Shown here in pieces: positions 7,290 through 43,479 of a DNA stretch of 64,000 bases. Where the stretch lies: the NCBI GenBank assembly GCA_964577965.1, contig CAZOAT010000002.1, positions 4,698 to 68,697 of the forward strand, read 5' to 3'. The position numbers and the translations under genes were made by a program. The first letter of the stretch is position 1. Every line of letters begins with the position of its first letter. Source of the stretch: an uncultured Gemmatimonadaceae bacterium. GTDB taxonomy: Bacteria; Gemmatimonadota; Gemmatimonadetes; Gemmatimonadales; Gemmatimonadaceae. The notes under the pieces were generated by a model, which saw only the letters and a program-made list of their open reading frames with translations, searched no databases and was not told the DNA's origin.

Positions 7290-7308
7290 CCGGCGGTCGG
7301 CGCTCAGA

Positions 7309-8229: not shown

Positions 8230-8310
8230 CTCATGGGCTGCTGGTCAGATCGTGATCCGGGCACGCGCCGAAGCGAATTGTAGACATCCTCACTCCGATA
8301 TCCAACAATC

Positions 8311-8877
8311 ATGAAAGAGACTCCAGTGAGCGGCGACCGCCGCACGCGACGCGCCAGCCTCCATAACGCATTCCGCGCAGTGAAGGCGCGTCAGGCCGAC
8401 CAGCGGACTCCGATGGGCCGGGTTGCCGAGAGGCTGACCCAGATTGCCAGCAGCACCTGGTTCTTCTGGCTGCATGTCGTCTGGTTCGCGCTCTGGATAG
8501 GGTGGAATGCCGGGGTGGCTGATCGCGCCTTCGATCCGTTCCCATTCGGCCTCCTGACGATGATAGTGTCGCTCGAGGCCATCTTTCTCGCCACTTTCGT
8601 CCTCATGACCCAGCAGCGGGAAGCCGGGATTGCGGAGCTGCGGGAGGAGCTGACGCTGCAGGTGAACCTGCGCATCGAGGAAGAGGTCACAAAGACGCTG
8701 CAACTGGTCGCCGGGCTGTATACTCGACTGGGGCAGACGATGGCGCAGGACACCGAGCTGGAACGGATGCTCGAGCCGCTTGACGCGGCGGCGATCGAGC
8801 GGGAAGTGACATCCCAGCTGAACGAGGCAGCACGCCAGCATCCTCGTCTTGCACGGGCGTGGAAGCGGACCAGATAA
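8311..8877 (+). CDS. DUF1003 membrane protein
   Basis: Two TM helices with the conserved FDPFPFGLLTMIVSLEAIFLATFVLMTQ core of DUF1003, followed by a coiled C-terminus. Confidence 0.7.
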   Translation: MKETPVSGDRRTRRASLHNAFRAVKARQADQRTPMGRVAERLTQIASSTWFFWLHVVWFALWIGWNAGVADRAFDPFPFGLLTMIVSLEAIFLATFVLMTQQREAGIAELREELTLQVNLRIEEEVTKTLQLVAGLYTRLGQTMAQDTELERMLEPLDAAAIEREVTSQLNEAARQHPRLARAWKRTR

Positions 8878-8993
8878 TCCCGTTCTCGAATAACGCAGTT
8901 GTTGCTGATATCCGAGGCTGGGATGGGAGCAGTGGAGACAATGGTTCAAGGTTTGCAAAAACGGATGCTCACCTAACGGAGACCTTCACACAC
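8878..8993 (+). promoter_or_regulatory. Probable promoter/leader region of the 13-gene sugar operon
   Basis: This is the only sizeable non-coding gap (116 nt) ahead of the overlapping gene array. It is visibly more AT-rich than its surroundings. No confident -35/-10 assignment. Confidence 0.25.
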
Positions 8994-10106
8994 ATGCGGC
9001 CACTGGTGTTGGTAACCGGAGGCGCGGGGTTCATTGGATCGCACGTGGCCGACGAACTCCTCGCTTCCGGATACAGGGTTCGTGCGCTCGACATCCTGGC
9101 GGAACAGGTCCACGGTGCCGGCGTGTCCCGGCCTGACTATCTGCATGCCGACGTCGAGCTCGTAGTCGGGGACATAGCGGACAGGGAGATCGTCCGCCAC
9201 TCGCTGGCCGGCGTGGATGCGGTGCTCCATCTCGCCGCGGCGGTCGGTGTCGGCCAGAGCATGTACGAGATCGAGCACTACACGCGAGTCAACAACATGG
9301 GGACGGCGGTGCTGCTTCAGGCGCTGGTTGACCGTCCGGTACGCAGGCTCGTCGTGGCGTCCAGCATGAGCATCTACGGCGAAGGGCTTTATCGTCGCAG
9401 CGACGGCACCTCCGTGCCTGCGGCTTCGCGAACTCAGGCGCAGCTGCGTCAGGGCAGATGGGAGCCGCTGGATGAGGAGGGCGAGCCGCTCGACCCCGCT
9501 CCCACTCCAGAATCGAAACCACCTTCCCTGGAATCGCTCTACGCCCTGTCCAAGTACGATCAGGAGAGAATGTGCCTGGTTTTGGGCCGCGCCTACGGTA
9601 TTCCCACCGTGGCACTCCGGCTCTTCAACGTGTACGGCACGCGGCAGGCGCTGTCTAACCCATATACCGGCGTTCTTGCGATTTTCGCATCGCGACTGCT
9701 CAACGGGAAGGCGCCGCTGGTGTTCGAGGGCGGCGGGCAGCGGCGGGATTTCGTGCACGTTCGGGATGTCGCGCGGGCCTTTCGTCTTGCGCTCGAGTCG
9801 GACGTCGCCGATGAGGTGTTCAACATCGGCAGCGGACGAAACTGCACGGTCGCGGAGATCGCCGAGCGACTTGCAAAGGTCCTGGGTAAGTCCGAGACGG
9901 CAGAGATTACGGGCAAGTTCAGAATCGGCGACATCCGCCACTGCTTCGCCGATATCTCCCAGGCTCGCGACGTCCTGGCGTACGAGCCGCAGGTGGAGTT
10001 CGATGCGGGCCTGGCCGAGCTCGCCGAGTGGCTGAGTCGGCAGACGGCAGTTGATCGTGCCGAGCAGGCGAGCGCGGAGCTCGCCCAGAGGGGACTGAGC
10101 GCATGA
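8994..10106 (+). CDS. Extended-SDR NDP-sugar epimerase/dehydratase
   Basis: Trimmed to the ATG at 8994 (MRPLVLVTGGAGFIGSH Rossmann motif). Catalytic YxxxK is present in LYALSKYDQE. Confidence 0.85.
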   Translation: MRPLVLVTGGAGFIGSHVADELLASGYRVRALDILAEQVHGAGVSRPDYLHADVELVVGDIADREIVRHSLAGVDAVLHLAAAVGVGQSMYEIEHYTRVNNMGTAVLLQALVDRPVRRLVVASSMSIYGEGLYRRSDGTSVPAASRTQAQLRQGRWEPLDEEGEPLDPAPTPESKPPSLESLYALSKYDQERMCLVLGRAYGIPTVALRLFNVYGTRQALSNPYTGVLAIFASRLLNGKAPLVFEGGGQRRDFVHVRDVARAFRLALESDVADEVFNIGSGRNCTVAEIAERLAKVLGKSETAEITGKFRIGDIRHCFADISQARDVLAYEPQVEFDAGLAELAEWLSRQTAVDRAEQASAELAQRGLSA

Positions 10107-11278
10107 TCTTCACGCCGCGCGTGCACGATCATGAGCTCTCGCGTCCGCCGCGCCGTGAGGGAGTGGACGACCGCCCGGTGGTAATAACCGGTGGCGCGGG
10201 TTTCGTCGGCTGCAACCTCGCCGCGCGCCTCCTCGGCGCTGGGCGACCCGTCGTGATTTTCGACAACATCTCCCGGCCCGGCGTGCGTGGCAATGTGGCC
10301 TGGCTGCGGGAGCGCTTCGGACGGCGATTCGAGCTTGAGGTCGCTGACGTGCGCGACCGGGAAGCGGTCTTCTCCTCCGTATATGGCGCGTCTGCAGTCT
10401 TCCACCTCGCCGCTCAGGTGGCGGTCACCGCCAGCCTCACCGATCCGGTGGAGGACTTCTGCATAAACACAGTCGGAACGCTGAACGTGCTCGAAGCGCT
10501 GAGGGCGCAGGCCCAGCCGCCGCCGCTCATCTATACCTCGACCAACAAGGTGTACGGCGATCTCGAAGACGTGACACTGCGGCGCAGCGATCGCCGATAT
10601 CAGCCCGCCGATGCGCGCATCGCGTTTACCGGTATCGGAGAGGATCGGCCGCTCGATTTCCACAGTCCCTACGGATGCTCCAAAGGCGCCGCTGACCAGT
10701 ATGTGCACGACTACGCCCGCTCCTATGGCCTGCGCACGGTGGTGTTCCGGATGAGTTGCATATACGGGCCCCATCAATACGGCAATGAAGACCAGGGGTG
10801 GCTAGCGCACTTCCTCATCAGCGCCATGCGTGGCGATCCGATCATGATCTACGGCGACGGCCGGCAGGTGCGGGACGCGTTATTCGTTGACGATCTGGTG
10901 GATGCGCTGTTGCTGGCGGAGCGCCACGTCGATCGCATTGCCGGTCAGGCCTTCAACATTGGCGGTGGTCCGGGGAACACCATCAGCCTGGTCGAGCTGC
11001 TGGATCGCATCGAGGCGCTGACGGGAGACCGCCCGGATGTGGCGATGCACGGCTGGCGCCCCGGCGACCAGCGCTACTACGTCTCGGATACGAGGAAGTT
11101 CGAGTCGGCCACAGGCTGGGTGCCGCGCGTGAACCTGGAAACTGGGATCCGGCAGTTGCACGAGTGGCTTACAGCTGTTCTGGAAGCCGATGGCGTTCAT
11201 CCCATCTGGCCGGTACCTGCAAACGCGCTGATGCGCACAGTCGCTGACAGTGGCCTGGCAGCTGAAAGCGCCCGGTGA
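10103..11278 (+). CDS. Extended-SDR NDP-sugar epimerase (CDP-paratose 2-epimerase-like)
   Basis: VVITGGAGFVGCNLA Rossmann motif and YGCSKGAADQY catalytic YxxxK. ATGA overlap with the upstream gene. Confidence 0.8.
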   Translation: MIFTPRVHDHELSRPPRREGVDDRPVVITGGAGFVGCNLAARLLGAGRPVVIFDNISRPGVRGNVAWLRERFGRRFELEVADVRDREAVFSSVYGASAVFHLAAQVAVTASLTDPVEDFCINTVGTLNVLEALRAQAQPPPLIYTSTNKVYGDLEDVTLRRSDRRYQPADARIAFTGIGEDRPLDFHSPYGCSKGAADQYVHDYARSYGLRTVVFRMSCIYGPHQYGNEDQGWLAHFLISAMRGDPIMIYGDGRQVRDALFVDDLVDALLLAERHVDRIAGQAFNIGGGPGNTISLVELLDRIEALTGDRPDVAMHGWRPGDQRYYVSDTRKFESATGWVPRVNLETGIRQLHEWLTAVLEADGVHPIWPVPANALMRTVADSGLAAESAR

Positions 11279-12275
11279 GCGTGCGGATCCGCCGGCGATC
11301 GTAGCTCACGATCAGTCGTCGGGACGCACCCTCGTCATCGAAGGCCCCCGGCGCGCACGCATCACCGACGTCGGGCTTCCCCGCCCCCTGGCCGGTGAGG
11401 TACGCGTGCAGCTGGAAGGATGCGGCATTTGCGCGTCGAACATCCCCGTGTGGGAAGGGCGAGACTGGTTCACGTATCCGCTCGATCCGGGTGCCCCGGG
11501 ACACGAGGGATGGGGGTTTATCGAATCAGCGGGTGAAGGAGTCGATTCGTTGCAGCCAGGCGACCGGGTTGCCGTGCTCTCACAACATGCTCTGGCCAGC
11601 TTCGACATCGCGCCCGTGGGGAACGTTGTGCCGCTCCCGGCGAAGTTGTCCGGCAGACCGTTTCCCGCCGAGCCGATCGGCTGCGCGTTCAACGTTCTTC
11701 GCCGGAGCGGCGTGGAGCCTGGCCAGGACGTGGCCGTCATCGGCATCGGCTTCCTTGGGGCGATCGTGACGCGGCTCGCAGCGAATGCGGGCGCACGCGT
11801 GATCGCGATCTCGAGACGGGCTTTCGCGCTTGGCGTTGCGCGGGAGTTCGGTGCTGCCGAGACGATTCAACTCGCGGATCACGCCGGAGTAATTGAGGCC
11901 GTACGCGAGCTCACCAACGGCCGCTGGTGCCATCGTGTGATCGAGGCGACTGGACTGCAGTGGCCGTTGGACATTGCCGGTGAGATCACCGCCGAGCGCG
12001 GGCGGCTCGTCGTCGCCGGCTTCCACCAGGATGGACCGCGCCGTGTGAACATGCAGCTGTGGAACTGGCGGGGACTGGACGTCATCAATGCGCACGAGCG
12101 GGACCCGCGCGAGTACGTGCGCGGAATGAGAGAAGCCGTCGAGGCGGTTGCCCGAGGTGATCTGGACCCCGATCCGCTGTACACACACCGCTTTCCATTG
12201 GAGCGGGCAGGCGAGGCGCTCGAGATGTCCGCCAGCAGGCCTGATGGCTTCATGAAGGCACTAGTTTGCACGTGA
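11250..12275 (+). CDS. Zinc-type alcohol dehydrogenase (MDR superfamily)
   Basis: GCGICASN and GHEGWG zinc-ligand regions, plus the nucleotide-binding loop VAVIGIGFLG. Confidence 0.8.
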   Translation: MAWQLKAPGERADPPAIVAHDQSSGRTLVIEGPRRARITDVGLPRPLAGEVRVQLEGCGICASNIPVWEGRDWFTYPLDPGAPGHEGWGFIESAGEGVDSLQPGDRVAVLSQHALASFDIAPVGNVVPLPAKLSGRPFPAEPIGCAFNVLRRSGVEPGQDVAVIGIGFLGAIVTRLAANAGARVIAISRRAFALGVAREFGAAETIQLADHAGVIEAVRELTNGRWCHRVIEATGLQWPLDIAGEITAERGRLVVAGFHQDGPRRVNMQLWNWRGLDVINAHERDPREYVRGMREAVEAVARGDLDPDPLYTHRFPLERAGEALEMSASRPDGFMKALVCT

Positions 12276-13312
12276 CCCACGTGACGCCATCGACAGAATC
12301 TGCTGTCGATGGTCGAACCCCTACACAGGCGATCCCGCGGCTTGGCTTCGTGGGGGTCGGCTGGATCGGACGCAACCGCATGCAGGCGATCGGCGAGAGC
12401 GGCTACGCACTGGTTGCGGCTGTGAGCGATCCTGCAAGCGAAGCGCTGGACGCAGCCGCGGCGGCCTTCCCGGAAGCGGCGCTCGCGCACCGGTTCGACG
12501 ATCTGCTCGCGATGGGGCTCGACGGGATCTCCATTGCCACGCCGAGCGCGCTGCACGCACGCCAGGCGATCGCGGCGCTGGAGCATGGATGCGCGGTGTT
12601 CTGCCAGAAACCACTGGGGCGTACAGTGGCAGAGGTTCGCTCCGTGTTGGCCGCGGGGCGGACAGCAGATCGGCTGCTCGGTGTGGACATGAGCTACCGT
12701 CACACCCGCGCGATGTCCGCGGTCCGAGACCTCGTGTTGCGCGGCGAGCTCGGCAGCGTGTTCGCCGCCGACATGGTTTTTCACAACGGCTATGGGCCGG
12801 ACAAGCCGTGGTTTCACGATCCGCTGCTTTCGGGTGGTGGGTGCATGATGGACCTGGGGGTACATCTCGTGGACCTGGCGCTGTGGACGCTCGGCTTCCC
12901 GGAGATTGCGCGCGTCAGCGGAACGCTCCTGAAGAATGGAGAGCGGTTCGGTCCTGGCAGTACGGGAGTCGAGGACTTCGCGACGGCTGAGATCAATCTG
13001 CGGAGCGGCTGCCTCGTTCGGGTCAGCTGTTCGTGGAACCTTCCGATAGGGCGCGACGCGCTCATATCCGCGACGTTCTATGGATCGGAGGCGGGAGCGT
13101 CGTTCAGGAACGTGAACGGATCGTTCTACGATTTCGAGGCCGTTCGGCTGGACGGAACTGCGACGACGCCGCTGGTCGGGCCGCCGGATGACTGGAGTGG
13201 GCGTGCGGCTGCAGTCTGGGCCGCAAGGCTCGCAAATGATCGCACGTACGATGCCTCAGTTGAGCAGCTGGTTGCGACTGCGGAAGTGCTCGACGCGGTG
13301 TACGGCCGATGA
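12266..13312 (+). CDS. Gfo/Idh/MocA family oxidoreductase
   Basis: N-terminal Rossmann LGFVGVGWIGRNR and the conserved VFCQKPL segment. A GTG at 12272 is an alternative start (GTGA overlap). Confidence 0.8.
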   Translation: MHVTHVTPSTESAVDGRTPTQAIPRLGFVGVGWIGRNRMQAIGESGYALVAAVSDPASEALDAAAAAFPEAALAHRFDDLLAMGLDGISIATPSALHARQAIAALEHGCAVFCQKPLGRTVAEVRSVLAAGRTADRLLGVDMSYRHTRAMSAVRDLVLRGELGSVFAADMVFHNGYGPDKPWFHDPLLSGGGCMMDLGVHLVDLALWTLGFPEIARVSGTLLKNGERFGPGSTGVEDFATAEINLRSGCLVRVSCSWNLPIGRDALISATFYGSEAGASFRNVNGSFYDFEAVRLDGTATTPLVGPPDDWSGRAAAVWAARLANDRTYDASVEQLVATAEVLDAVYGR

Positions 13313-14391
13313 GAGTGCTCATGACAGTCGATGCGGTCGGTGGAGTGTGGACGTATGCGCTCGCCCTGGCCGATTCGCTGCGCCCGCACGGTGTCGCCGC
13401 GGAGCTGGCCACGATGGGCCCGCGCCCTTCCGCGCGGCAGCGGACAGACGCGGCGCGGTGCGGGATCGCCGAAGTGCACGAGAGCGACTTCCGGCTCGAA
13501 TGGATGGAAGACTCGCGGGAGGATGTGGCAGCGGCCGGGGATTGGCTGCGGGAACTGGTGGAGCGTACGGAATGCGATCTCATTCACCTCAACGGATACA
13601 TGCATGGCGCCCTGGAGTGGCCGGTACCGGTGCTGATGGCCGCTCATTCCTGCGTGCTCTCCTGGTGGCGGGCGGTGCACGGGGCTACTGCGCCTCGTGA
13701 ATGGGATCGTTACCGCCGCGCGGTGCGGGCAGGTCTCGATTCGGCCTCTGTCGTCGTCTCACCGACTCGCGCCCTGCTGAAACTGATGTCAGCCGAGCAC
13801 GGCCCGATCGCGCGCACCAGAGTGATTCACAATGGCCTCAACGTTGGACGTGGTCCGCCGGAGGCGAAGGATCCGCTGGTCCTCGCGTGCGGAAGGTTCT
13901 TGGACGAAGGGAAGAACCTGTCAGTTCTGGAGCAGGTCGCTCCGCACCTGCCATGGCCGCTGCTCGTTGCCGGTGAGGTGCAGGCGGGCACGTCGAGTGC
14001 TGGAATGCTCGGCAGGCTGGAGCACGAGGAGGTGCTGAGATGGCAGCGGCGCGCCGCAATCGTGGTGCATCCGGCGCGATACGAGCCGTTCGGGTTCGTA
14101 CCGCTGGAAGCGGCAGCTGCGCGCTGCGCGCTCGTGCTTGCGGACATTCCGTCACTGCGCGAGCTGTGGGACGGTGCGGCGTTGTTCGTCCATCCGGACG
14201 ATGCCGCCGGCATCGCTGCGGCTATACATCAGCTGATAGCCGAGCCTGCCCTGCGTAGCGCGATGGGCGCACGCGCAGCGCGCAGAGCGCGCGCGTTCAG
14301 CGCCAGCGCAATGGCAGGCGCCTACGCGAGCATCTACCGGGAACTGCTGGGCAGGCCCGAATGCCCATTGGAGCTGGCATGCGCTTCGTGA
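13309..14391 (+). CDS. GT4-family (GT-B) glycosyltransferase
   Basis: C-terminal E-x7-E region YEPFGFVPLEAAAARCALV. ATGA overlap with the upstream gene. Confidence 0.8.
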   Translation: MRVLMTVDAVGGVWTYALALADSLRPHGVAAELATMGPRPSARQRTDAARCGIAEVHESDFRLEWMEDSREDVAAAGDWLRELVERTECDLIHLNGYMHGALEWPVPVLMAAHSCVLSWWRAVHGATAPREWDRYRRAVRAGLDSASVVVSPTRALLKLMSAEHGPIARTRVIHNGLNVGRGPPEAKDPLVLACGRFLDEGKNLSVLEQVAPHLPWPLLVAGEVQAGTSSAGMLGRLEHEEVLRWQRRAAIVVHPARYEPFGFVPLEAAAARCALVLADIPSLRELWDGAALFVHPDDAAGIAAAIHQLIAEPALRSAMGARAARRARAFSASAMAGAYASIYRELLGRPECPLELACAS

Positions 14392-15497
14392 TCTTCTGCC
14401 ATTCGCTGATCTCGGACTGGAACCATGGCAATGCGCATTTCCTCCGCGGCGTCGTGAGCGACCTGCTGCTGCGTGGCCATCACGTTCGTGTGTACGAGCC
14501 GCGTGACGCCTGGAGCGTGATGAATCTGGTTCGCGATGCCGGTGGGGAAGCGCTCGACCAGTTCCGCACCGCCTACCCGCAGCTCGACAGCGTGCGGTAC
14601 GATCCGGTGTCGCTGGATCTCGGGACCGTTCTGGCCGACGCCGACGTCGTGCTGGTACACGAGTGGAACGAGCATGACCTGGTCGCGCGGATCGGTGCCC
14701 ACCGGGCGCAGCATGATTCGTACGCGCTCTTCTTCCACGACACGCACCACCGATCGCTGACCGAGCCCGACGAGATGGCCAGGTACGAGCTCGCCTCATA
14801 CGACGGAGTCCTGGCGTTCGGTCGCGTGATCACGGAAGCATACCGCAGGCGCGGCTGGGCACGCCGTGCATGGACGTGGCACGAGGCCGCCGACATACGC
14901 GTGTTCCAGCCGCGGCCGTCTGCCGGCAGGGACGGCGACCTGGTCTGGATCGGAAATTGGGGGGACGATGAGCGCACGGCGGAGCTGACGGAGTTCCTCA
15001 TTGAGCCTGTGCGCGCGCTTCGGCTGCGCGCCGCCGTGCACGGCGTGCGGTATCCGCCGGAAGCGCTGGCGGCGCTGGAACGGAACGGGATTGAATACAG
15101 GGGGTGGCTGCCGAACCACCTCGTGCCCGATTCGTTCGCCCGCTACAGTCTCACTGTGCACGTGCCGCGCGGCCCTTATGCAGCGAGGCTGCCCGGGATT
15201 CCGACGATCCGCGTGTTCGAGGCGCTGGCCTGTGGTATTCCGCTCGTGAGCGCGCCGTGGACTGACGCGGAGAACCTGTTCACTCCCGAGGAGGATTACC
15301 TGGTTGCGCGGAATGGTGACGAGATGCGAGTGGCGTTGCGTACGCTGCTCGACGATCCGGCGCATGCGCAGGCGCTCGCTAACCATGGTCTGGCCGCAGT
15401 GCGAGCGCGTCATACCTGCACCCATCGGGTGGACGAGCTGCTCGCGATCGTACGGGAGTTGAGCGCCGCCGCGCCGGACGGAGCGCGCGCCGCATGA
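14379..15497 (+). CDS. CgeB-like glycosyltransferase, paralogue 1
   Basis: Start set at MRFVIFCHSLISDWNHGNAHFLRG. It shares the N-terminal S..S.W.NG.A...RG....L..RGH.V motif and the C-terminal R.FEA.ACG motif with the next two genes. Confidence 0.7.
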   Translation: MRFVIFCHSLISDWNHGNAHFLRGVVSDLLLRGHHVRVYEPRDAWSVMNLVRDAGGEALDQFRTAYPQLDSVRYDPVSLDLGTVLADADVVLVHEWNEHDLVARIGAHRAQHDSYALFFHDTHHRSLTEPDEMARYELASYDGVLAFGRVITEAYRRRGWARRAWTWHEAADIRVFQPRPSAGRDGDLVWIGNWGDDERTAELTEFLIEPVRALRLRAAVHGVRYPPEALAALERNGIEYRGWLPNHLVPDSFARYSLTVHVPRGPYAARLPGIPTIRVFEALACGIPLVSAPWTDAENLFTPEEDYLVARNGDEMRVALRTLLDDPAHAQALANHGLAAVRARHTCTHRVDELLAIVRELSAAAPDGARAA

Positions 15498-16597
15498 GCG
15501 GGGTCTCCATCGCCTTTTTCGGTTCGAGCCTGGTCTCGGCCTACTGGAACGGTGCCGCAACGTACTACCGCGGGATCGTCCGCGCACTCGCCCGGCGCGG
15601 GCACAGAGTCACGTTCTACGAGCCGGACGCGTTCGGCAGGCAGCAGCACCGTGACATCCCCGATCCGGATTGGGCGAGAGTCATTGTTTATGCGGGTGAC
15701 GACGAGGCTGCGGCCTACAGCGCTCTGGAGGATGCGGCAGGGAGCGATCTGGTGGTCAAGGCGAGCGGAGTTGGCGTGTACGACGAGCTGCTGGAGCGGG
15801 AGGTGCTGGCGCTGCACTCCAGCAGAACGCGTGTGGTCTTCTGGGATGTGGACGCACCAGCTACTCTGGAGCGTGTGCATGCTGACCCACGGGATCCGTT
15901 CCGCGCGCTGATTCCACGGTACGACATGGTACTCACCTATGGCGGGGGTCCGCCGGTGATCGAAGCGTACAGCGCTCTGGGGGCACGGGACTGCGTTCCG
16001 ATCTACAACGCGCTGGATCCTGCGACCCACCAACAGGCTGTACCGGAGCCGCGGTTTGAATGTGATCTCGGTTTTCTGGGGAACAGACTCCCCGACCGCG
16101 AAGCACGCGTGGAAGAGTTCTTTTTTCGCCCCGCAACGCTGCTTCCTGAGCGCAGCTTTCTCCTGGGTGGCAGCGGGTGGGAGGACAGGGCAGTGGCAGC
16201 AAATGTGCAGCTCCGCGGCCACGTTTACACACACGAGCACAACGCCTTCAACTCCACCCCTCTCGCCGTCCTCAATGTGAATCGCGACAGCATGGCGCAG
16301 TATGGCTTCTCGCCGCCGACGCGCGTCTTCGAGGCTGCAGGGGCGGCCGCGTGCCTCATTACCGACCAGTGGGACGGGCTGGAGTGGTTCCTCGAGCCGG
16401 GGTCGGAGGTACTCGTGGCAGCCAGCGGCAACGATGTCGCGGCACATCTGAGTCAGCTCACACCCCGGCGGGCACGTTCCATAGGCCGTGCGGCACATCG
16501 TCGCGTGCTCGCGGAGCACACCTACTCCCATCGCGCTGTGCAGTTGGAGGACGTACTGGATCTGACTTCCGCCGCGCTGGTGGGTGCAGGCTCATGA
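15494..16597 (+). CDS. CgeB-like glycosyltransferase, paralogue 2
   Basis: SLVSAYWNGAATYYRGIVRALARRGHRVTFYE and TRVFEAAGAAACLITD. ATGA overlap on both sides. Confidence 0.7.
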   Translation: MSGVSIAFFGSSLVSAYWNGAATYYRGIVRALARRGHRVTFYEPDAFGRQQHRDIPDPDWARVIVYAGDDEAAAYSALEDAAGSDLVVKASGVGVYDELLEREVLALHSSRTRVVFWDVDAPATLERVHADPRDPFRALIPRYDMVLTYGGGPPVIEAYSALGARDCVPIYNALDPATHQQAVPEPRFECDLGFLGNRLPDREARVEEFFFRPATLLPERSFLLGGSGWEDRAVAANVQLRGHVYTHEHNAFNSTPLAVLNVNRDSMAQYGFSPPTRVFEAAGAAACLITDQWDGLEWFLEPGSEVLVAASGNDVAAHLSQLTPRRARSIGRAAHRRVLAEHTYSHRAVQLEDVLDLTSAALVGAGS

Positions 16598-17748
16598 GCA
16601 GCGGCCTGGACATCGTTTTCCTCGGCCTTTCAATAACATCGTCGTGGGGGAACGGGCACGCGTCGACGTATCGCGGACTGGTGCGAGAGCTCGCAGCGCG
16701 TGGACATCGGGTGCGTTTCCTGGAGCGGGACAGGCCGTGGTACGCGGCGAATCGTGATCTCCCCCACCCACCGGGCGCGGAGACTCATGTCTACTCGTCG
16801 CTGGACGAGCTGTTCATCGATCATGGCTCAGCCGTGCGTGGCGCTCACGCTGTGATCGTCGGCTCGTACGTGCTTGACGGTGTCGCGGTTGGGGAGTGGG
16901 TTACGGAGACCGCGACAGGCGTCACCGCGTTCTACGATATCGACACGCCGGTGACACTGGCGAAGCTGCGGTCGGGCGACGCGCAGTATCTCAGCAGCGA
17001 GCTGGTGAGGCGGTACGATCTGTATCTGTCGTTTACCGGCGGGCCCACGCTCGAAGTCATCGAGCGGGAGTTCGCCTCACCTTACGCCCGCCCGTTGTAC
17101 TGCTCTGTCGATCCGGCGCAGTATCACCCAGAGAACGCGGCCGAGCGCTGGGCGCTCGGATATCTCGGCACCTACAGTGACGACAGGCAGCCCGCTGTTG
17201 AACGCCTTCTCATCGAGCCTGCGCGTACCTGCGGGATGCTTCGATTCGCGGTCGCGGGTCCTCAATATCCGGAAGCGATCGCATGGCCCTCGAATGTCGA
17301 GCGGATCGAGCACCTGCCGCCGTCGGACCACAGTCGGTTCTACAACTCGCAGCGGTTCACGCTCAATGTGACTCGGGCCGCAATGGTAGAGGCTGGATAC
17401 TCGCCGAGCGTTCGGCTGTTCGAGAGTGCGGCGTGCGGAACACCTGCGATAACCGACTTCTGGCCGGGGCTCGACGCTTTTTTTGCGATCGACGAGGAGA
17501 TTGTGGTTGCGCATGACGCTCGCGACGTCGTCAAGGCGCTCCGCGGAATGCGCGCTGGAGACGCTGAGCAGATCGGCCAACGTGCGCGTGAGCGGGTGTT
17601 GCGGTCGCATACCGCGGCGCACCGTGCAGCTGAACTGGAGACCTATCTGGTGGATCTCCTGGGAGCTGATATCACGACCCCATCGCTGACGCGCGAGGTG
17701 CAGCCGATGCCTGACGATCCTTTGCTGACTTATCCGGGGAGTCAGTGA
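16594..17748 (+). CDS. CgeB-like glycosyltransferase, paralogue 3
   Basis: ORF 16177..17748 trimmed to the ATG at 16594 (ATGA overlap). Motifs SITSSWGNGHASTYRGLVRELAARGHRVRFLE and VRLFESAACGTPAITD. Confidence 0.7.
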   Translation: MSSGLDIVFLGLSITSSWGNGHASTYRGLVRELAARGHRVRFLERDRPWYAANRDLPHPPGAETHVYSSLDELFIDHGSAVRGAHAVIVGSYVLDGVAVGEWVTETATGVTAFYDIDTPVTLAKLRSGDAQYLSSELVRRYDLYLSFTGGPTLEVIEREFASPYARPLYCSVDPAQYHPENAAERWALGYLGTYSDDRQPAVERLLIEPARTCGMLRFAVAGPQYPEAIAWPSNVERIEHLPPSDHSRFYNSQRFTLNVTRAAMVEAGYSPSVRLFESAACGTPAITDFWPGLDAFFAIDEEIVVAHDARDVVKALRGMRAGDAEQIGQRARERVLRSHTAAHRAAELETYLVDLLGADITTPSLTREVQPMPDDPLLTYPGSQ

Positions 17749-18602
17749 TGGCGACGCTGCTGCAGGAGCGGGTCAGCGCGCCCACGGCTGAGCGGGAGCA
17801 GGAGATCGCCGCACTCGGACCGTGGTTCCACAATCTGCATCTGCCTGACGGGTCACAGACCGCGCCGCAGAGCCCCCTGGGGGATTTCCCGGCATTCAAG
17901 TGGAAGCAGCTGGCTTCGCATCTGCCGCAGGACCTCTCCGGGTGGACCGCGCTCGACATCGGCTGCAACGCCGGGTTCTACACTTTCGAACTTGCAAAGC
18001 GCGGAGCAAAAGTCACGGCTCTCGATACGGAGCCGCTGTTCCTCCGCCAGGCGGAATGGGCTGCGCGCGAGTTCGGTCTCTCCGATCGCATCCGATTGAC
18101 GCGCGGCCAGGTTTACGAGCTCGCGCACGAGGAGGCCTGCTACGACCTCGTCCTGTTCATGGGCCTGTTTTATCACCTGCGCTACCCGTTACTCGCCCTC
18201 GACATCGTCGCCGACAAGGTGAAGCGGCTGTTCGTATTCCAGACGCTCACAATGCCCGGGACAGACGTATTCAGCGGGACCAATGCTGAGCGGGACATCA
18301 TGGAGCGGGAGATGTTCAACGCGCCCGGCTGGCCGAAAATGGCGTTCATTGAGCACAGCTACGCCGGAGACGAAACCAACTGGTGGGCTCCCAACCATGC
18401 GGCGGTTGAGGCGCTGCTCCGCTCCAGCGGAATGCGGGTGACCGCCCGGCCGGGCCACGAGATGTATGTGTGCGAGCCGAACCCTTTACAGGTTCCATGG
18501 AGGCGAGGTGCAGGTGCGAGTGAGCTGATGTCTGCCACTGGGTCAGGGCGGCGCTGCACTTGCACTCATGGTGTAGAGGAGAAGCGGTCCACTCGACCAT
18601 GA
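17745..18602 (+). CDS. Class I SAM-dependent methyltransferase (CmoB/DUF1698-like)
   Basis: SAM motif I LDIGCNAGFYTFELAKRGA and a CmoB-like N-terminal segment GPWFHNLHLPDG. GTGA overlap with the upstream gene. Confidence 0.75.
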   Translation: MMATLLQERVSAPTAEREQEIAALGPWFHNLHLPDGSQTAPQSPLGDFPAFKWKQLASHLPQDLSGWTALDIGCNAGFYTFELAKRGAKVTALDTEPLFLRQAEWAAREFGLSDRIRLTRGQVYELAHEEACYDLVLFMGLFYHLRYPLLALDIVADKVKRLFVFQTLTMPGTDVFSGTNAERDIMEREMFNAPGWPKMAFIEHSYAGDETNWWAPNHAAVEALLRSSGMRVTARPGHEMYVCEPNPLQVPWRRGAGASELMSATGSGRRCTCTHGVEEKRSTRP

Positions 18603-19495
18603 TTGAAGCCGTAAAGATCTGGAACGAACCGAACAACCTTTCGCACTGGGATTTCACTGCGGATCCCGAATGGAAGCAGTTTGCCGCGATGGCAAGCCAG
18701 GCGGCCGAGCGCACCCGGTCGTGCGCGCCGCACCTCAAGGTTGTGATGGGCGGCATCTCTCCGATCGATCCGGCGTTCGTTCAGCGCCTGCTCGACCACG
18801 GTGCGCTCAATGACGTTGACGCCGTCGCCGTCCACGGGTTTCCGCTGGACTGGAATCACTGGCGGCTGCACGAGTGGCCGGAGAAGGTGCGGGAGATCGA
18901 GGAGGTCGCGGGGAAGCCTGTCTGGGTGACGGAAGTCGGCGTCTCCAGCTTCGGCGCGGACGAGGTGCAGGCGTTCGGGCTGCGGCGGACGCAGCAGCTG
19001 CTGGCCGGCGTGGATCGTGTCTACTGGTACAGCCTGCTCGACCTGCCGATTACCTGGGAGGCCACCACCCGGCACAGGGAGAGCGAGGGGAGCTCGTATT
19101 ACCGGCACTTCTACATGGGGCTGGTCCGGGAGGACGGGACCCCAAAAGAGGCAACCCGATTTTTCGATTCGCGCATCGGGATGTGTCAGTGGTTCCACTT
19201 CGAGGATCCCAGACTGGAGCTTGCGGTGCATTGGCTGCGGGAGCTCGGCGTGCGCCGGCTGCGCACCGGGCTGAGCTGGGCCGATCGCTATCGCGAGAAC
19301 TCACTCGACTGGTTCGACAGACAGATGGAAGCGCTCCAGGAGTTCGACGTCACGCTGACCCTTTGCTTCACCCCGGCACACTGTGGAGTGATGCCACACC
19401 ACGCCAGTCCGCCAGTGAACGCCAGTCAGTTCGCCGATTTCACGCAGGAGATGCTCGAGCGGTACGCGCCCGCGCCCGCAGGCGTGTCCGGCTGA
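18599..19495 (+). CDS. Clan GH-A (GH39/GH5-like) glycoside hydrolase, apparently circularly permuted
   Basis: The ATG at 18599 overlaps the methyltransferase stop (ATGA). WNEPN acid/base motif at residues 8-12, VTEVG nucleophile motif around residue 112. The C-terminal 110 aa resemble strands beta1-beta3. Confidence 0.65.
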   Translation: MIEAVKIWNEPNNLSHWDFTADPEWKQFAAMASQAAERTRSCAPHLKVVMGGISPIDPAFVQRLLDHGALNDVDAVAVHGFPLDWNHWRLHEWPEKVREIEEVAGKPVWVTEVGVSSFGADEVQAFGLRRTQQLLAGVDRVYWYSLLDLPITWEATTRHRESEGSSYYRHFYMGLVREDGTPKEATRFFDSRIGMCQWFHFEDPRLELAVHWLRELGVRRLRTGLSWADRYRENSLDWFDRQMEALQEFDVTLTLCFTPAHCGVMPHHASPPVNASQFADFTQEMLERYAPAPAGVSG

Positions 19496-19496
19496 G

Positions 19497-20120
19497 TTGA
19501 GGGGATTGACGGAAGCGACAGTCTTCTTTCTGGTTCGACATGCGCTGTGCGACCCGGTCGGCGTTACGATCGCCGGCCGTGGTGGTGCGGTGCCGCTGAA
19601 CGCGGCTGGTCGCCGGCAGGCGTCCTCGCTTGCAGAGCGGCTACGTGAGGTGGAGCCGCATGCGCTCTATTCAAGCCCGCTTGACCGCGCGCTCCAGACC
19701 GCGGAGGCGATTGCGCGCGTCGTGGGGCTGGACGTCGTCACCGACGATGCCTTCACGGAGGTGGATTTCGGCGGCTGGACAGGCGAGCGTCTCTCTGATC
19801 TTGCTGAGCGGTCTGAGTGGCGGCGCTTCAATCAGCTGCGGAGCTGGGCGCAGGTGCCCGATGGAGAGCTGATGATCTCAGCCCAGGCACGCGCGGTCGC
19901 TGGACTCGCGCGACTGCGAGTCGCGCACCCCGGGAATCGGGTGGTGATCGTCACGCACGCGGATGTGGTCCGCGGAGTGCTCACCCACGCGGTCGGTGCT
20001 CCGCTCGACATGCTGCTGCGCTTCGAGTGCGATGCCGCGTCGGTCAGCGTTGTCACGCTCGACAACGACAATGTGCGCGTGCTCCGCGTGAACGACTCCG
20101 GTTCGCTGGCGGGACTGTGA
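19497..20120 (+). CDS. Histidine phosphatase family protein (phosphoglycerate-mutase-like)
   Basis: N-terminal FFLVRHA (RHG-type catalytic motif) and a second catalytic His in VIVTHADVV. TTG start 1 nt after the upstream stop. Confidence 0.75.
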   Translation: MRGLTEATVFFLVRHALCDPVGVTIAGRGGAVPLNAAGRRQASSLAERLREVEPHALYSSPLDRALQTAEAIARVVGLDVVTDDAFTEVDFGGWTGERLSDLAERSEWRRFNQLRSWAQVPDGELMISAQARAVAGLARLRVAHPGNRVVIVTHADVVRGVLTHAVGAPLDMLLRFECDAASVSVVTLDNDNVRVLRVNDSGSLAGL

Positions 20121-21457
20121 CACGCCGCTCACACCAGCCACTTCCCGGGTCGCCGCGCCACGTTCTGCTCTGGGCCAGAATATTCGAAAGCCTCTGGTTC
20201 ATTCCCGCTCTGGGCGCGGCTGCCGGCGTAATCCTGGCTGTGATCACGCTCTCTTTCCCGATCGCCGGCCAGCTGGAGGACACCTGGATCTATCCCCTCC
20301 TGTTCAGCGGCGAACCCGAAAGCGCACGAGCCGTTCTGAGCACAATCGCCGGCAGCCTCATCACGGTCACGGGTGTCGTTTTCTCGGTGACAATCGTCAC
20401 GCTGCAACTGGCGAGCACACAGTTCACGCCGCGGGTGATGCGCGGGTTTATCGCCGATCGCACGAACCAGTTGGTGCTGGCGATCTTCATTGGAACGTTC
20501 ACATATACGCTTCTCGTTCTTGGCGGCCTCGGCTCGCCGGGACACGGTGAGGATGGCGTTCCGGTCATCGCGGTCACGCTCTCCCTGGTGCTGCTGCTCG
20601 TCAGCGTTGGCGCGCTGATTCTGTTCATCAACAGATCCGCACGGTCGGTTCAGGTCTCCACGATCCTGAGGCGAGAGGCCGAGCAGGCCGTGAATCGCGA
20701 CAACGGGATTTTCCCGGCTGGCGTCGGCACCGGTATTTCCGAAACCGACTTCACACCGCCATCGGGTGACCCGGCATCAGTTCGTGCGCGCGGACCCGGC
20801 TACGTGCAGGCGGTGGATGGCAGCGGGATGCTGGAGCTCGCCCGGAAGCAGAACGTGGTCGTGGAGATCAAAGTGTCCGTGGGCGAGTTCCTGTTCCCGG
20901 AGAAGACAGTTCTCTGCGTCTGGCCGGCCGAACGTGTGAGCGATGAGCTGAACGGAGAGCTGCTCGACCTGGTCGTGATCGGCCCTGAGCGAACACCGCA
21001 GCAGGACGTCGAGTTCAGCATCGGGGCGGTCGCCGACATCGCGGTCCGCGCCCTGTCCACCGGCATCAACGATCCGACCACGGCAATGCTGGCGATTGAT
21101 CGCCTGACTGAGATCCTGGGATCGCTCGCAGGATCCGGGGAGGAGGCGGTGCGCGCTGATGAATCGGGAGTGCCGCGGCTCGTGGTTCGAAGGACAACAT
21201 TCGAGCGAGCGGCGGGGCTCGCATTCGATCAAATCAGACTTCACGGTGCGGGGAATCCCGCCATCGTGAAGAAGATCCTGGACTCGATGCTCGATCTGCT
21301 GCCGCTGTTGAACGCGTACGAGGCAGCCGCGATCCGCCGGGAAGCAGACCGGCTGCTGTCAGCGGCGCGCCAGAGTTCTCCCCGCGACGAGCTTCCCGAT
21401 GTCGAGGAGCTGGCGCTCCGCGTCCTGCGCGAAACTCCCGGCAGTCAGACGAGCTGA
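20117..21457 (+). CDS. DUF2254-like membrane protein
   Basis: ORF 19817..21457 trimmed to the GTG at 20117 (GTGA overlap). Four N-terminal TM helices are followed by a large soluble domain, matching DUF2254 architecture. Confidence 0.6.
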
Positions 21458-24225
21458 CGCAGCACGTACGGCAGGATGCCGCCGTGCCGGTAGTAGTTCA
21501 GCTCCTCCGGCGTATCGACGCGCGAGCGTACCTGAAACTCCCGAACGGCTCCGTCAGCTGAACGCGCACGCGCCGTCAGCACTGCACGCGGCGACATCGA
21601 TTCGTGCAGTCCGACAAGGTCATAGGTCTCGAAGCCGGTCAGTTCGAGAGTGTCGCGAGTCTGCCCGCCCACGAACTCGAGCGGAAGCACCCCCATGCCG
21701 ACGAGGTTGGAGCGATGGATCCGCTCGAACGACTCGGCAATCACGGCGCGAACGCCGAGCAGCAGCGTTCCCTTGGCGGCCCAGTCACGCGAGGAGCCGG
21801 TACCGTACTCCTTGCCGGCCAGGATGATGAGTGGTGTGCCGAGTGCCTGGTACTCGGTGGACGCGTCGAAGATCGTCTTCGGCTCGCCACCGGGCTCCAT
21901 CGTCGTCCAGCCACCTTCCGTTTGAGGAGCGAGCTCGTTGCGCAGGCGGATATTGGCGAAGGTGCCACGCAGCATCACTTCGTGGTTGCCCCGGCGCGCT
22001 CCGTAGGAATTGAACTCCCTGGTCGTTACGCCATGCGCGATGAGCCACTTGCCCGCGGGACTCGCCGCCGGGATCGAGCCGGCGGGAGAGATGTGATCGG
22101 TGGTTATCGAATCTCCGAGCCGCGCCAGCACGCGCGCGCCGGTTAGGGGCCGTATCGGAGGTGGTGCCAGCGTGAGGCCGTCGAAGAACGGCGGATTCTT
22201 CACGTACGTCGAATCCGGATCCCACGCGAAGCGATCTCCCTCGGGTACCGGTAGTCCACGCCAGTTCTCGTCGCCTGCGAAAACGTTCGCGTACTGCTCG
22301 CGGAACATGTCGGCCTGCACCGAGCGCAGGATCTCGTCCGCGACTTCCTTCGGGCTCGGCCAGATGTCACGCAGGTACACCGGGCCGTCCCGTCCCGCAC
22401 CGATCGGCTCAGTCGCGAAGTCGATGTCCATCCGCCCCGCGAGCGCATACGCGACGACCAGCGGTGGCGACGCCAGGTAGTTGAATCGTGTGAGCGGGTT
22501 GATGCGTCCTTCGAAGTTGCGGTTCCCCGACAGCACAGCTGCAACGATGAGCTTGTTCTCCTCGATCGCTTCCGCTACCGGCTCCGGCAGCGGCCCCGAA
22601 TTGCCGATGCACGTGGTGCAGCCGTAGCCGACGAGGTTGAAGCGCAGTGTGTTGAGAGCGCTGGTGACCCCGGCTTTGTTGAAGTACTCGGTCACCACTT
22701 TGGAGCCCGGGGCCAGGCTGGTCTTCACCCAGGGCTTGGTCGCCAGTCCCCTCTCCACGGCATTCCGCGCCAGCAGTCCGGCCGCGAGCATCACGCTCGG
22801 GTTCGAAGTGTTGGTGCAGCTCGTGATTGCGGCGATCACAACCGAGCCATGGCCCAGCGGGAATGTGACGTCGTTCATCGTCACCGGGGTCGCGCCGTAC
22901 TGGTGCTGCTGCTCCTCCTGCGTCCGCGGCACGATTTCCGGGGAGAGCTCAGGTGAAGCGGCAACGGCGTGCGCCTGTCTGGCTCCGGCGACACCCGCCA
23001 GCGTGCCCGCCTTCTCCAGCTCGACCGCGAGCGACTCGCGGAACAGCTGCTTCGACATCTTGAGTGGCACTCTGTCCTGCGGCCGCTTGGGCCCGGCGAG
23101 ACTCGGCTCCACTGCGCCGAGGTCGAGCTCGAGCGTGTCGCTGAACACCGGATCCGGCGTCGCATCGGTGCGGAACAGCCCCTGTTCCTTGCAATACTCC
23201 TCGACCAGCCGTACGTGAGGCTCCTCCCGTCCCGTGAAGCGCAGATACTTGAGCGTTTCGTCGTCCACCGGAAAGAAGCCCATCGTCGCACCGTATTCGG
23301 GTGCCATGTTTCCGATCGTGGCGCGATCGGCGAGCGACAGGTTGGAGAGACCTGCGCCGTAGAACTCCACGAACTTGCCGACGACCTTCTTCTGCCGGAG
23401 GATCTGCGTCACCGTCAGAACCAGGTCGGTCGCCGTAGCGCCCGGCGGCAACTCGCCGTGCAGCTTGAAGCCGACTACTTCGGGGATAAGCATCGAGACC
23501 GGCTGGCCGAGCATGGCGGCTTCGGCCTCGATGCCACCGACACCCCAGCCCATCACTCCCAGCCCATTGATCATCGTGGTGTGAGAGTCTGTTCCGACCA
23601 GCGAATCGGGGTAGGCCAATACGCCTTCCTCCGTCTCGCGGCTGAACACCACGCTCGCCAGGTACTCCAGATTGATCTGGTGTACGATCCCCGTGTCGGG
23701 GGGCACAACGCGGAAATTATGGAAGGCCGTCTGCCCCCAGCGGAGCAGCGCGTAGCGCTCCTGGTTCCTCTCGAACTCCAGGTTTGCGTTTATCAGAATC
23801 GCCGCCTCCGATCCGTACTCGTCCACCTGCACCGAGTGGTCAATGACGAGATCGACAGGCTGCAGAGGGTTGATCTTCGCCGGGTCGCCACCGAGCGCAG
23901 CCAGCGCTTCGCGCATTGCCGCGAGGTCAACCACCGCGGGAACGCCCGTGAAATCCTGCAGGAGGACGCGTGCCGTGCGGAACGAGATCTCCAGCTGCGC
24001 GGCGCTGGAGCTGTCCCAGGTGGCCATCGACCGGATATCAGCTTCACGCACGAAGCTGCCGTCTTCGTTTCGCAGGAGATTCTCGACCAGGATCCTGAGG
24101 CTGAAGGGAAGCCGGGAAACCGTGGAACCGGGGAGACTGTCGAGCGCGGACAACCGGAAAATGACGTACGAGCGGCCATCGACCTCGAGCGTGCCGCGGC
24201 TGCCGAATGAGTTGGGGTTTGCCAT
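21445..24225 (-). CDS. acnA: Aconitate hydratase A
   Basis: 926 aa. Fe-S ligand contexts [18 protein letters not shown] and [10 protein letters not shown] are present. Confidence 0.95.
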
Positions 24226-25405: not shown

Positions 25406-25457
25406 GAGACGTATATTGATAAACCAACGCGTCATTCACCGCCTGAGCCATCCACAC
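25406..25457. promoter_or_regulatory. Short divergent intergenic region with an AT-rich core (TATATTGATAAA)
   Basis: The AT-rich 12-mer at about 25412-25423 stands out in GC-rich DNA. It lies about 35-45 nt upstream of the plus-strand ATG at 25458. A promoter role is inferred only. Confidence 0.2.
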
Positions 25458-40202: not shown

Positions 40203-40778
40203 ATGAAGCTGCGGTATCTCGGTTTGGCGCTCGTTGCCGGCGCTTGTGCGACCACCAGCTCGCTGCCGATTGCGAGCGAGCAGGATACGTTCTGGCGTAA
40301 TCTGGCGTCGCTGTGCGGCCAGGCGTTCGAGGGACGCATTGTGCACTCATCGCCGGGCGACACTTCCATGGCGAACCAGCGCCTCGTGATGCACGTACGC
40401 GAGTGCTCCGATGAGGAGATCCGCGTCCCCTTCCACGTGGGCGATGACCGCTCGCGGGAGTGGGTTTTCACGCGCACAAACACCGGGCTCCGCCTGAAGC
40501 ACGATCACCGGCACGAGGATGGACAGCCGGACAGCGTCACGATGTATGGCGGCGATACGCGCGCGCGGGGCGAGAGCTGGAGACAGAGCTTTCCCGCTGA
40601 CGCGCATACCGCGTCGATGAACCCGCTCTATCAGACGAACGTCTGGACAGTGGAGCTGCGTCCCGGGCAGAGCTACATCTACGATCTGGAACGGATCGGC
40701 ACCGACAGGCGCTTTCGCGTCGACTTCGATCTCACGCGTCCGGTTGCGGCACCTCTACCGCCGTGGCGAGTGCAGTGA
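40203..40778 (+). CDS. Lipoprotein, unknown function
   Basis: MKLRYLGLALVAGACATT is a signal peptide with lipobox LVAGAC. Confidence 0.6.
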   Translation: MKLRYLGLALVAGACATTSSLPIASEQDTFWRNLASLCGQAFEGRIVHSSPGDTSMANQRLVMHVRECSDEEIRVPFHVGDDRSREWVFTRTNTGLRLKHDHRHEDGQPDSVTMYGGDTRARGESWRQSFPADAHTASMNPLYQTNVWTVELRPGQSYIYDLERIGTDRRFRVDFDLTRPVAAPLPPWRVQ

Positions 40779-43448: not shown

Positions 43449-43479
43449 CAGCGTCGGCTCATCAACAGCTGCTTGCGGC

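Follow-up and report, generated by a model that had tools for sequence, protein, structure and literature searches.

Positions 8994-21457 of a 64,000-nt stretch of DNA from an uncultured Gemmatimonadaceae bacterium (the window; contig CAZOAT010000002.1) are one operon of 12 co-directional plus-strand genes, here called g1 to g12, that are coupled by overlapping stop and start codons. The operon is the local version of a very widespread gene cassette. Genes g1 to g9 occur in the same order in about 13 phyla, with median identities that range from 47% for the GT4 glycosyltransferase g5, the least conserved core gene, to 67% for the CgeB-type transferase g7, the most conserved. The eleven products of g1 to g11 are, to judge from their sequences, soluble enzymes. 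We propose that the cassette directs the assembly, in the cytoplasm, of a glycoside or short oligosaccharide that is methylated and probably based on inositol, a reading that we consider to have an even chance of being correct. The family of the methyltransferase g9 is already recognized by NCBI; the cassette and its product are apparently undescribed. We found no published description of either in the full-text literature, nor a homologous cluster with a known product, which an earlier note on this DNA had named as a finding that would speak against its own proposal of an intracellular methylated glycan.

Gene order and distribution of the cassette

The earlier note had counted 13 genes in the operon. 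The open reading frame (ORF) listing and the translations give 12, which is also the number to which that note's own list of contents adds up. The junctions that it described all match: there are ATGA stop/start overlaps at 10103, 13309, 15494, 16594 and 18599, GTGA overlaps at 17745 and 20117, longer overlaps of 29 nt (11250), 10 nt (12266) and 31 nt (14361), and a 1-nt gap before 19497. The same genes have been called independently on three metagenome assemblies of the same organism, and those calls differ in two starts, with g9 beginning at the ATG at 17748 and g11 at 19506, the latter leaving a 10-nt gap. Ahead of the operon lies an intergenic gap of 116 nt (8878-8993), AT-richer as previously reported (51% GC vs 65% in the operon), which is the presumed promoter or leader region. 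An Rfam scan of 7500-22500, the gap included, returned zero matches, no match to the sigma-70 consensus was found inside the gap, and a scan for promoters and terminators within the operon gave no signal above chance.

The distribution of the cassette was determined from 80 loci kept from a search of GTDB species genomes with a methyltransferase alignment. The twelve window proteins were compared with these loci by tblastn for synteny, and in a census all ORFs of the 80 loci and of the window were clustered all-against-all and the recurrent clusters searched against protein families. Fifty of the loci have at least 9 kb of sequence upstream of the methyltransferase gene, and 26 of these contain all of g1 to g8 in the same order. 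The same g1-g8 order is present in Sinorhizobium meliloti, Rhizobium etli, Xanthomonas sacchari and the isolate Gemmatimonadetes bacterium T265. The earlier note had proposed a search for a conserved neighborhood, and the shared order of g1 to g9 is the outcome of that search. The loci come from Gemmatimonadota, Bacteroidota, Pseudomonadota, Desulfobacterota, Acidobacteriota, Verrucomicrobiota and Planctomycetota, with Chloroflexota, Armatimonadota, Cyanobacteria, Actinomycetota, Fibrobacterota and Binatia as further source lineages. Plasmids or chromids carry the cassette in S. meliloti 1021 (pSymB, at about 242-258 kb), R. etli CFN42 (p42b, RHE_RS22255-22300), Azospirillum, Roseomonas, Bradyrhizobium and X. 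sacchari. In many phyla it stands alone amid unrelated genes, as it does in X. sacchari, on R. etli p42b and on S. meliloti pSymB. The window itself has the three hallmarks by which the cassette was recognized, namely a methyltransferase above the TIGR04290 cut-off, the g1-g8 gene order, and the barrel and phosphatase companions.

The methyltransferase family is compact, with 155 clusters (50% identity) at E<=1e-30 among 1.84 billion representatives. Relatives of g9 are encoded in at least 574 GTDB species genomes, and searches of public genomes and metagenomes return thousands of related proteins. In Rufibacter and Acidobacteriota loci, inserts of 2-6 kb lie between g8 and the methyltransferase gene; they contain a sensor kinase, a likely transposase (from inspection of its translation) or unconserved ORFs, and are uninformative.

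The enzymes and a proposed pathway

Searches with Pfam and NCBIfam bore out every domain assignment of the earlier note: two extended short-chain dehydrogenases/reductases (SDRs), a Zn-dependent alcohol dehydrogenase, a Gfo/Idh/MocA oxidoreductase, a GT4 glycosyltransferase, three PF13524 proteins, a CmoB-like methyltransferase, a protein like the glycoside hydrolases (GH) of clan GH-A, a His_Phos_1 phosphatase and a DUF2254 protein. Hydropathy agrees with the claim that the enzymes lack signal peptides and transmembrane (TM) helices, since TM segments and signal-like N-termini are absent from g1 to g11; g12, with four TM segments, is a membrane protein.

The first four genes encode oxidoreductases. 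The g1 protein (8994-10106; PF01370, 177 bits) is a GalE-type (UDP-hexose 4-epimerase) extended SDR that contains an insert of about 40 aa; its median identity to its relatives is 64%. Its best PDB relatives are the UDP-hexose 4-epimerases 6wjb and 4zrm, and the motif read from its sequence is S-x-S..YxxxK, not the TDE motif of dehydratases. The g2 protein (10103-11278) is an extended SDR of the CDP-tyvelose 2-epimerase type (PDB 9rl0 and 1orr, 276-282 bits) with the motif STNKVYG. The motifs read in both proteins are of the epimerase rather than the dehydratase type. The g3 product (11250-12275; ADH_N and ADH_zinc_N) is a Zn-dependent polyol/cyclitol dehydrogenase of the medium-chain dehydrogenase/reductase (MDR) class, whose top PDB match is sorbitol dehydrogenase and whose top NCBIfam match, far below the cut-off, is the scyllo-inosose 3-dehydrogenase IolM. 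The g4 product (12266-13312; PF01408 and PF22725) is a Gfo/Idh/MocA sugar/cyclitol ring dehydrogenase; its top NCBIfam match, below the cut-off, is the inositol 2-dehydrogenase IolG, and its PDB relatives include the glycoside 3-dehydrogenase DgpA, 1,5-anhydrofructose reductase and scyllo-inositol dehydrogenase.

Four glycosyltransferases follow. The GT4 enzyme g5 (13309-14391) has the domains Glyco_transf_4 and Glycos_transf_1, and its top NCBIfam match is MshA, in the C-terminal domain only and below the cut-off. The next three genes encode CgeB-type GT-B transferases of family PF13524: g6 (14361-15497, 124 bits), g7 (15494-16597, 131 bits) and g8 (16594-17748, 137 bits). Pairwise identity among the three is just 26-34%, and 26-29% for g6 against the other two, whereas the identity of each to the orthologue at the corresponding position in other phyla is 60-67% (60% for g6). 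This combination of low paralogue and high orthologue identity indicates that the triplication is old and that each copy is separately constrained. An R-x-F-E motif is among the residues common to the three proteins and their orthologues. Among the 74 loci with enough sequence, g8 lies directly 5' of the methyltransferase gene in 50. By sequence, g7 has no relative in the PDB; its AlphaFold (AF2) model, with a predicted local distance difference test (pLDDT) score of 91, has a GT-B fold, and Foldseek places it nearest to GT4 enzymes at 13-16% identity: ManT, GlgM, tll1591 (a sucrose alpha-1,2-glucosyltransferase), BshA, MshA, SPS, PimA, PimB, PglA and TreT. The top match is ManT (7qsg, about 15% identity) of the mycobacterial methylmannose polysaccharide (MMP) pathway, a rank that carries no weight because the E-values of these matches are essentially tied. 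The class to which the matches belong, retaining transferases that mostly act on soluble acceptors, is the informative part of this structural comparison.

The g9 protein (17745-18602) is a methyltransferase of the TIGR04290 family, dependent on S-adenosylmethionine (SAM), which scores 319 bits against a cut-off of 300. Its nearest solved relative is CmoB, to which it aligns in the core only (E 1e-10).

The protein encoded by g10 (18599-19495) was called a GH-A hydrolase in the earlier note, and its circular permutation is a new observation. In this (beta/alpha)8 barrel of the GH-A type, strand 4 (WNEPN) comes first in the chain and strands 1-3 come last. When an unpermuted relative from the locus L078 is aligned with it, residues 115-296 of the relative correspond to window positions 18602-19159, and residues 12-112 to positions 19172-19468. 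PslG, one of the few PDB entries that g10 matches by sequence, aligns with the identical split. The AF2 model is an 8-stranded barrel (pLDDT 85), for which Foldseek, an aligner that works sequentially, gave partial matches only, to GH128, GH10, GH53 and GH5. The motifs of the two catalytic glutamates, W8-N9-E10-P11 and T111-E112-V113-G114, are invariant in 31 sequences. The g10 protein thus agrees with clan GH-A in its barrel, its NEP acid/base glutamate and its nucleophile glutamate, and departs from it in the canonical 1-8 order of the strands. We rejected the possibility of an N-terminally truncated or misannotated hydrolase, because the ORF, from stop to stop, leaves room for no more than 25 additional residues and the strands missing from the N-terminus are found at the C-terminus. 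The permuted family is widespread (about 300 aa, 60-80% identity) and is annotated as 'beta-xylosidase' in the sources.

A GH-like barrel is encoded in 45 of the 80 loci, permuted in 22 and unpermuted in 23, and no locus has both. In 18 loci the unpermuted barrel shares one stop-free ORF with the g2 orthologue, the barrel coming first; examples of this in-frame fusion to the g2-type SDR are L078 1225-3369, L086 7862-9760 and L087 10440-12479. RefSeq contains the fusion as a single coding sequence in X. sacchari (632 aa) and R. etli (679 aa). The recurrence of the barrel and its fusion to g2 imply that it is integral to the system and functionally tied to the 2-epimerase-like SDR. The two mutually exclusive forms, permuted and SDR-fused, are a clean natural case of protein-topology evolution.

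The last enzyme, g11 (19497-20120; PF00300, His_Phos_1, 164 bits), is a histidine phosphatase of branch 1 whose nearest PDB entries are the PspA and PhoE phosphatases. Seventeen of the 80 loci, and S. meliloti as well, encode a full-length orthologue (at least 40% identity) close to the cassette, and in other loci the phosphatase gene adjoins synthase and GH genes. The final gene, g12 (20117-21457; PF10011, 363 bits), encodes the DUF2254 membrane protein. It is translationally coupled here, yet it is not a conserved member of the cassette, being found elsewhere only in two Rufibacter loci, at 28% identity.

The extra neighbor that most often accompanies the cassette is inositol-3-phosphate synthase. 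Its gene adjoins cassette genes in 14 of the 80 loci (at 0-764 nt, the range within which all of the recurrent accessory genes of the census lie) and in S. meliloti, making 15 loci. There are two sequence types that do not cluster with each other, from nine and five loci and from at least nine lineages. One is like TIGR03450, the mycothiol INO1 model (431 bits, below the cut-off); the other scores on PF07994 and PF01658. In S. meliloti the synthase gene sits between the phosphatase gene and the gene for a 587-aa protein.

In the pathway that we propose, the 4-epimerase-like g1 and the 2-epimerase-like g2 would convert common nucleoside diphosphate (NDP)-hexoses into rarer epimers. The GT4 enzyme g5 and the three non-redundant CgeB-type transferases would then add sugars stepwise to a soluble cytoplasmic acceptor, and the three CgeB-type proteins may act as a complex. 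The acceptor is probably inositol phosphate or inositol, because inositol-3-phosphate synthase is the commonest extra neighbor of the cassette. The histidine phosphatase g11 would strip the phosphate, as in two-step compatible-solute pathways. Oxidation followed by reduction, by the Zn-dependent g3 and the Gfo/Idh/MocA enzyme g4, could invert a ring hydroxyl of the cyclitol or of a sugar; g9 would O-methylate the product, and the GH-like barrel g10 might trim, prime or recycle it. The predicted product is small, a methylated cyclitol glycoside or oligosaccharide that could plausibly protect against stress.

A bolder form of this proposal is that the cassette represents a hitherto unrecognized and very widespread bacterial pathway for methylated cyclitol (inositol-derived) glycosides, a counterpart of the pinitol and galactosyl-cyclitol protectants of plants, with a hetero-oligomeric CgeB trio and a permuted GH-A enzyme, that serves desiccation and osmotic tolerance in soil bacteria, rhizobia included. 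We regard this form as speculative and rather doubtful. If a new soluble methylated cyclitol glycoside were indeed the product, a major class of stress protectant would be added to bacterial physiology, and the large CgeB-like (PF13524) transferase family would acquire a function outside Bacillus spores. The presence of the cassette on S. meliloti pSymB and R. etli p42b makes the question directly testable in genetically tractable strains.

Neighboring genes and alternative readings

Directly upstream of the operon, beyond the region covered by the earlier note, is a gene for a DUF1003 membrane protein (8311-8877, plus strand; PF06210, 94 bits; with a TM segment), which may be an accessory gene or the 13th of the operon. 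In 4 of the 80 loci (L043, L051, L054 and L073, from three phyla), a DUF1003 gene is found no more than about 500 nt away from cassette genes; Flavisolibacter, Luteolibacter and Variovorax are among the sources of loci with such a gene nearby. In S. meliloti the distance from a DUF1003 gene to the closest cassette gene is about 3 kb. The window's DUF1003 gene has a sigma-70-like promoter match on its 5' side, at 8281-8309. A 222-aa minus-strand ORF antisense to the gene (8290-8958) has no family match and is probably spurious.

The census identified further recurrent neighbors. A gene for an NTP-transferase together with a fourth CgeB-like gene is present in 12 loci, and one for a HAD-IIIA phosphatase in six. 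Six of the 80 loci encode a UDP-xylose-synthase-like SDR, as do the loci of S. meliloti, R. etli, X. sacchari and isolate T265. The 587-aa protein is linked to the cassette in 17 loci (for example L021 10817-12589) and also in S. meliloti (L083 4380-6128). Searches of Pfam, NCBIfam and the PDB gave no match; inspected by eye, the protein has a phosphoribosyltransferase (PRTase)-like 'LLVDEGPGLSGSS' motif and a kinase-like C-terminal 'HHDDHFFPG' motif. Apart from DUF1003, the window has none of the accessory genes of its relatives (synthase, NTP-transferase pair, 587-aa protein, UDP-xylose-synthase-like SDR, HAD-IIIA phosphatase, ABC exporter). There is also a mini-locus without g1 to g8, which consists of genes for the synthase, a permuted GH, the phosphatase, a TIGR04290 methyltransferase, a GT9 (heptosyltransferase-like) enzyme and a second methyltransferase (L011 7094-12595; also L031, L034, L037 and L052, with L031 lacking the synthase).

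Some neighbors touch on regulation. In Thermoanaerobaculia (L012, L020, L025, L033 and L045), the genes 3' of the methyltransferase gene, as seen by eye, likely encode a ferritin-like stress protein, trehalose-6-phosphate synthase and topoisomerase IB, and these loci also hold a two-component, sigma-54-type regulator pair by the methyltransferase gene. In X. sacchari, RefSeq annotates a sigma-54-dependent regulator 3' of the cassette. The S. meliloti locus has a single copy of GGAAC-N16-17-CGTT, the EcfG/RpoE2 motif of the alphaproteobacterial general stress response, which is no more than expected by chance and lies upstream of the ndi genes rather than the cassette, and we therefore make no claim of stress regulation. 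A sugar-binding protein, SMb20231, is encoded near the S. meliloti cassette, going by a locus-tag match in the literature.

The earlier note had reported an operon without Wzx/Wzy, ABC exporter, priming transferase or chain-length regulator, and none was detected with Pfam among the ORFs scanned in the operon or in the 64-kb window. The window also has no outer-membrane export protein. Among the recurrent cassette neighbors inspected (roughly those in at least 5 of the 80 loci) there was no priming transferase, flippase, polymerase or outer-membrane export protein. The note had added that a conserved exporter or priming transferase just outside the operon in relatives would point to an ordinary exopolysaccharide (EPS) or O-antigen locus. 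Exporters do adjoin the cassette in 8 of the 80 loci, which partly bears out that objection, but no priming transferase is among the neighbors inspected, and the cassette therefore does not qualify as an ordinary locus for EPS or O-antigen.

The conclusion of the earlier note, an intracellular methylated oligosaccharide or glycoside, therefore stands in part: the soluble enzymes and the lack of lipid-carrier genes favor it, and adjoining exporters, a phosphatase unlike GpgP and a likeness to ManT at the level of the fold only do not. Several observations weigh against our own version of this reading. An MsbA/NdvA-like ABC exporter gene lies 0-169 nt from a cassette gene in the eight loci just mentioned (six from Gemmatimonadales and two from Verrucomicrobia), a polysaccharide pyruvyl transferase gene adjoins the cassette in S. 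meliloti, and in the window the cassette is flanked by genes for membrane proteins, DUF1003 on the upstream side and DUF2254 on the downstream side. GT4 enzymes that are soluble also take part in lipid-linked pathways to surface glycans, and solubility alone is consequently no proof of a cytoplasmic product. The inositol-3-phosphate synthase is beside the cassette in just about 18% of loci, and neither of its types is encoded in the 64-kb window. The matches of g4, g3 and g5 to IolG, IolM and MshA are far below the family cut-offs, and the comparison of g11 with the PDB gave no match to GpgP at E<=1e-8. CmoB is a carboxymethyl transferase, which makes the group transferred by g9 uncertain. The methylation and the intracellular retention of the product are predictions, and each enzymatic step is assigned from family membership.

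The first alternative retains the carrier-free cytoplasmic assembly of an oligosaccharide and adds its movement to the periplasm or outside, by an ABC half-transporter, as NdvA/ChvA do for cyclic glucans, or by DUF2254, DUF1003, YihY/BrkB or EamA proteins. We consider this less probable, but a serious possibility. The ABC exporter is encoded in six of the eight Gemmatimonadales loci with enough flank, and in two of its eight loci the gene is directly 3' of the methyltransferase gene. In the window, g12 is coupled to g11 and occupies the position that the exporter has in the six Gemmatimonadales relatives. The recurrence of DUF1003 beside the cassette, YihY/BrkB in five loci, EamA in isolate T265 and the pyruvyl transferase of S. 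meliloti are of the same tenor. However, no single membrane protein is conserved with the cassette, and no exporter was observed next to the copies in X. sacchari, R. etli, S. meliloti and the Bacteroidota, nor in the two Gemmatimonadales loci that resemble the window most closely. Where the exporter is present, its score reaches none of the NCBIfam cut-offs and so gives no indication of its class of substrate, periplasmic and outer-membrane components are absent, and the GH-like protein has no signal peptide, unlike the EPS hydrolases of the PslG type.

A second alternative, which we consider unlikely, is that the transferases decorate a non-carbohydrate acceptor made elsewhere, such as a membrane lipid (a glycolipid or glycosyl-inositol lipid), a carotenoid, a hopanoid, a protein or a secondary metabolite. 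PimA, PimB and PglA, which are among the fold matches of g7, act on lipid-linked acceptors, and the link to inositol-3-phosphate synthase would fit an inositol lipid as well. CgeB, the namesake of the family, is linked to glycosylation of the Bacillus spore crust, a connection drawn in part from annotation names. Yet the 80-locus census revealed no recurrent gene for a phosphatidylinositol-phosphate synthase, an acyltransferase, carotenoid or hopanoid biosynthesis or a carrier protein beside the cassette. The phosphatase and the GH-like barrel suit a soluble phospho-glycoside route better, and the content of the cassette is constant across phyla with very different envelopes.

Finally, a catabolic or salvage operon for methylated cyclitol glycosides of plant origin, to which the GH-like barrel, the IolG- and IolM-like ring dehydrogenases, the DgpA-like fold, the phosphatase and a sugar ABC importer nearby in S. 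meliloti could be assigned, is very improbable with a conserved core of four GT-B transferases and a methyltransferase, biosynthetic neighbors (inositol-3-phosphate synthase, UDP-xylose synthase and NTP-transferase) and neither a transporter nor a kinase conserved with the cassette.

The remainder of the window consists of housekeeping genes, those for queuosine, polyamines, aconitase, heme/siroheme, acetyl-CoA synthetase and peptidases. The polyamine genes, on the minus strand at 1044-2426 and 6267-8229, encode a deoxyhypusine/homospermidine-synthase-like protein, agmatine deiminase (PAD_porph) and N-carbamoylputrescine amidase (CN_hydrolase). An unusual fusion of a patatin-like phospholipase with a C-terminal single-cluster 4Fe-4S ferredoxin domain is encoded at 24236-25435, also on the minus strand. 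A tetrapyrrole cluster at 40763-45448, with genes for a siroheme-decarboxylase-like protein (NirD/L, AhbA/B-type), a TP_methylase-HemD fusion, HemC and HemB, suggests the alternative route to heme via siroheme.

Comparison with known systems

Having weighed these alternatives, we compared the cassette, read as a cytoplasmic pathway to a methylated, probably inositol-based product, with systems of known function. The loci for Wzx/Wzy-, ABC- and synthase-dependent polysaccharides share with it several GT-B transferases, NDP-sugar epimerases and a GH-A/GH39-like hydrolase (PslG). They differ from it in every lipid-carrier component: the operon has no initiating or priming transferase, flippase, polymerase, co-polymerase or chain-length regulator, or outer-membrane export protein, and its hydrolase is permuted and has no signal peptide.

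In plants, methylated cyclitols are made by way of an inositol methyltransferase and a two-dehydrogenase epimerization of ononitol to pinitol, and galactosyl cyclitols are also formed; the rhizobial rhizopine is 3-O-methyl-scyllo-inosamine. By analogy, the cassette parallels the plant route in having a source of inositol, an O-methylating enzyme, two dehydrogenases that could together invert a ring hydroxyl, an epimerase of the GalE type and glycosyltransferases; no sequence relation is expected. There is no aminotransferase in the cassette, and this excludes rhizopine itself as the product.

The mycobacterial MMP cluster (mmpH, manT, meT1 and meT3) is similarly a compact set of a soluble GT4-type transferase, a SAM-dependent methyltransferase and a hydrolase, without genes for an exporter or a lipid carrier, and it yields a methylated product in the cytoplasm. 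The cassette has no recognizable orthologues of ManT or MeT1/MeT3: g7, without a sequence relative in the PDB, resembles ManT at the level of the fold alone, and the methyltransferase is a CmoB-like TIGR04290 protein whose nearest solved relative is CmoB. The cassette also adds four oxidoreductases, four GT-B enzymes, a phosphatase and the link to the synthase, and it is found in about 13 phyla rather than in mycobacteria alone.

The early steps of mycothiol biosynthesis (Ino1, MshA and a phosphatase) proceed from inositol-3-phosphate synthase to a GT4 enzyme acting on inositol phosphate and then to a phosphatase, an order of events that the cassette would reproduce. MshA is the top NCBIfam match of g5 and one type of the neighboring synthase scores on the INO1 model, both below the cut-off. 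No homologues of MshB, MshC or MshD were seen, and the host phyla of the cassette are not known producers of mycothiol.

In the two-step solute pathways (GpgS/GpgP, MpgS/MpgP, SPS/SPP and OtsA/OtsB), a cytoplasmic glycosyltransferase makes a phospho-glycoside from which a dedicated phosphatase frees the solute, and the mycobacterial GpgP is an enzyme of the histidine phosphatase family in this solute-releasing role. The operon likewise encodes a dedicated phosphatase, g11, together with its glycosyltransferases. The differences are that g11 is nearest to PspA and PhoE and that the cassette has far more tailoring enzymes than any solute pathway known. In its working, the cassette seems to resemble the compact cytoplasmic glycan and solute pathways, represented by MMP, early mycothiol and GpgS/GpgP; by sequence, it is a member of none of them.

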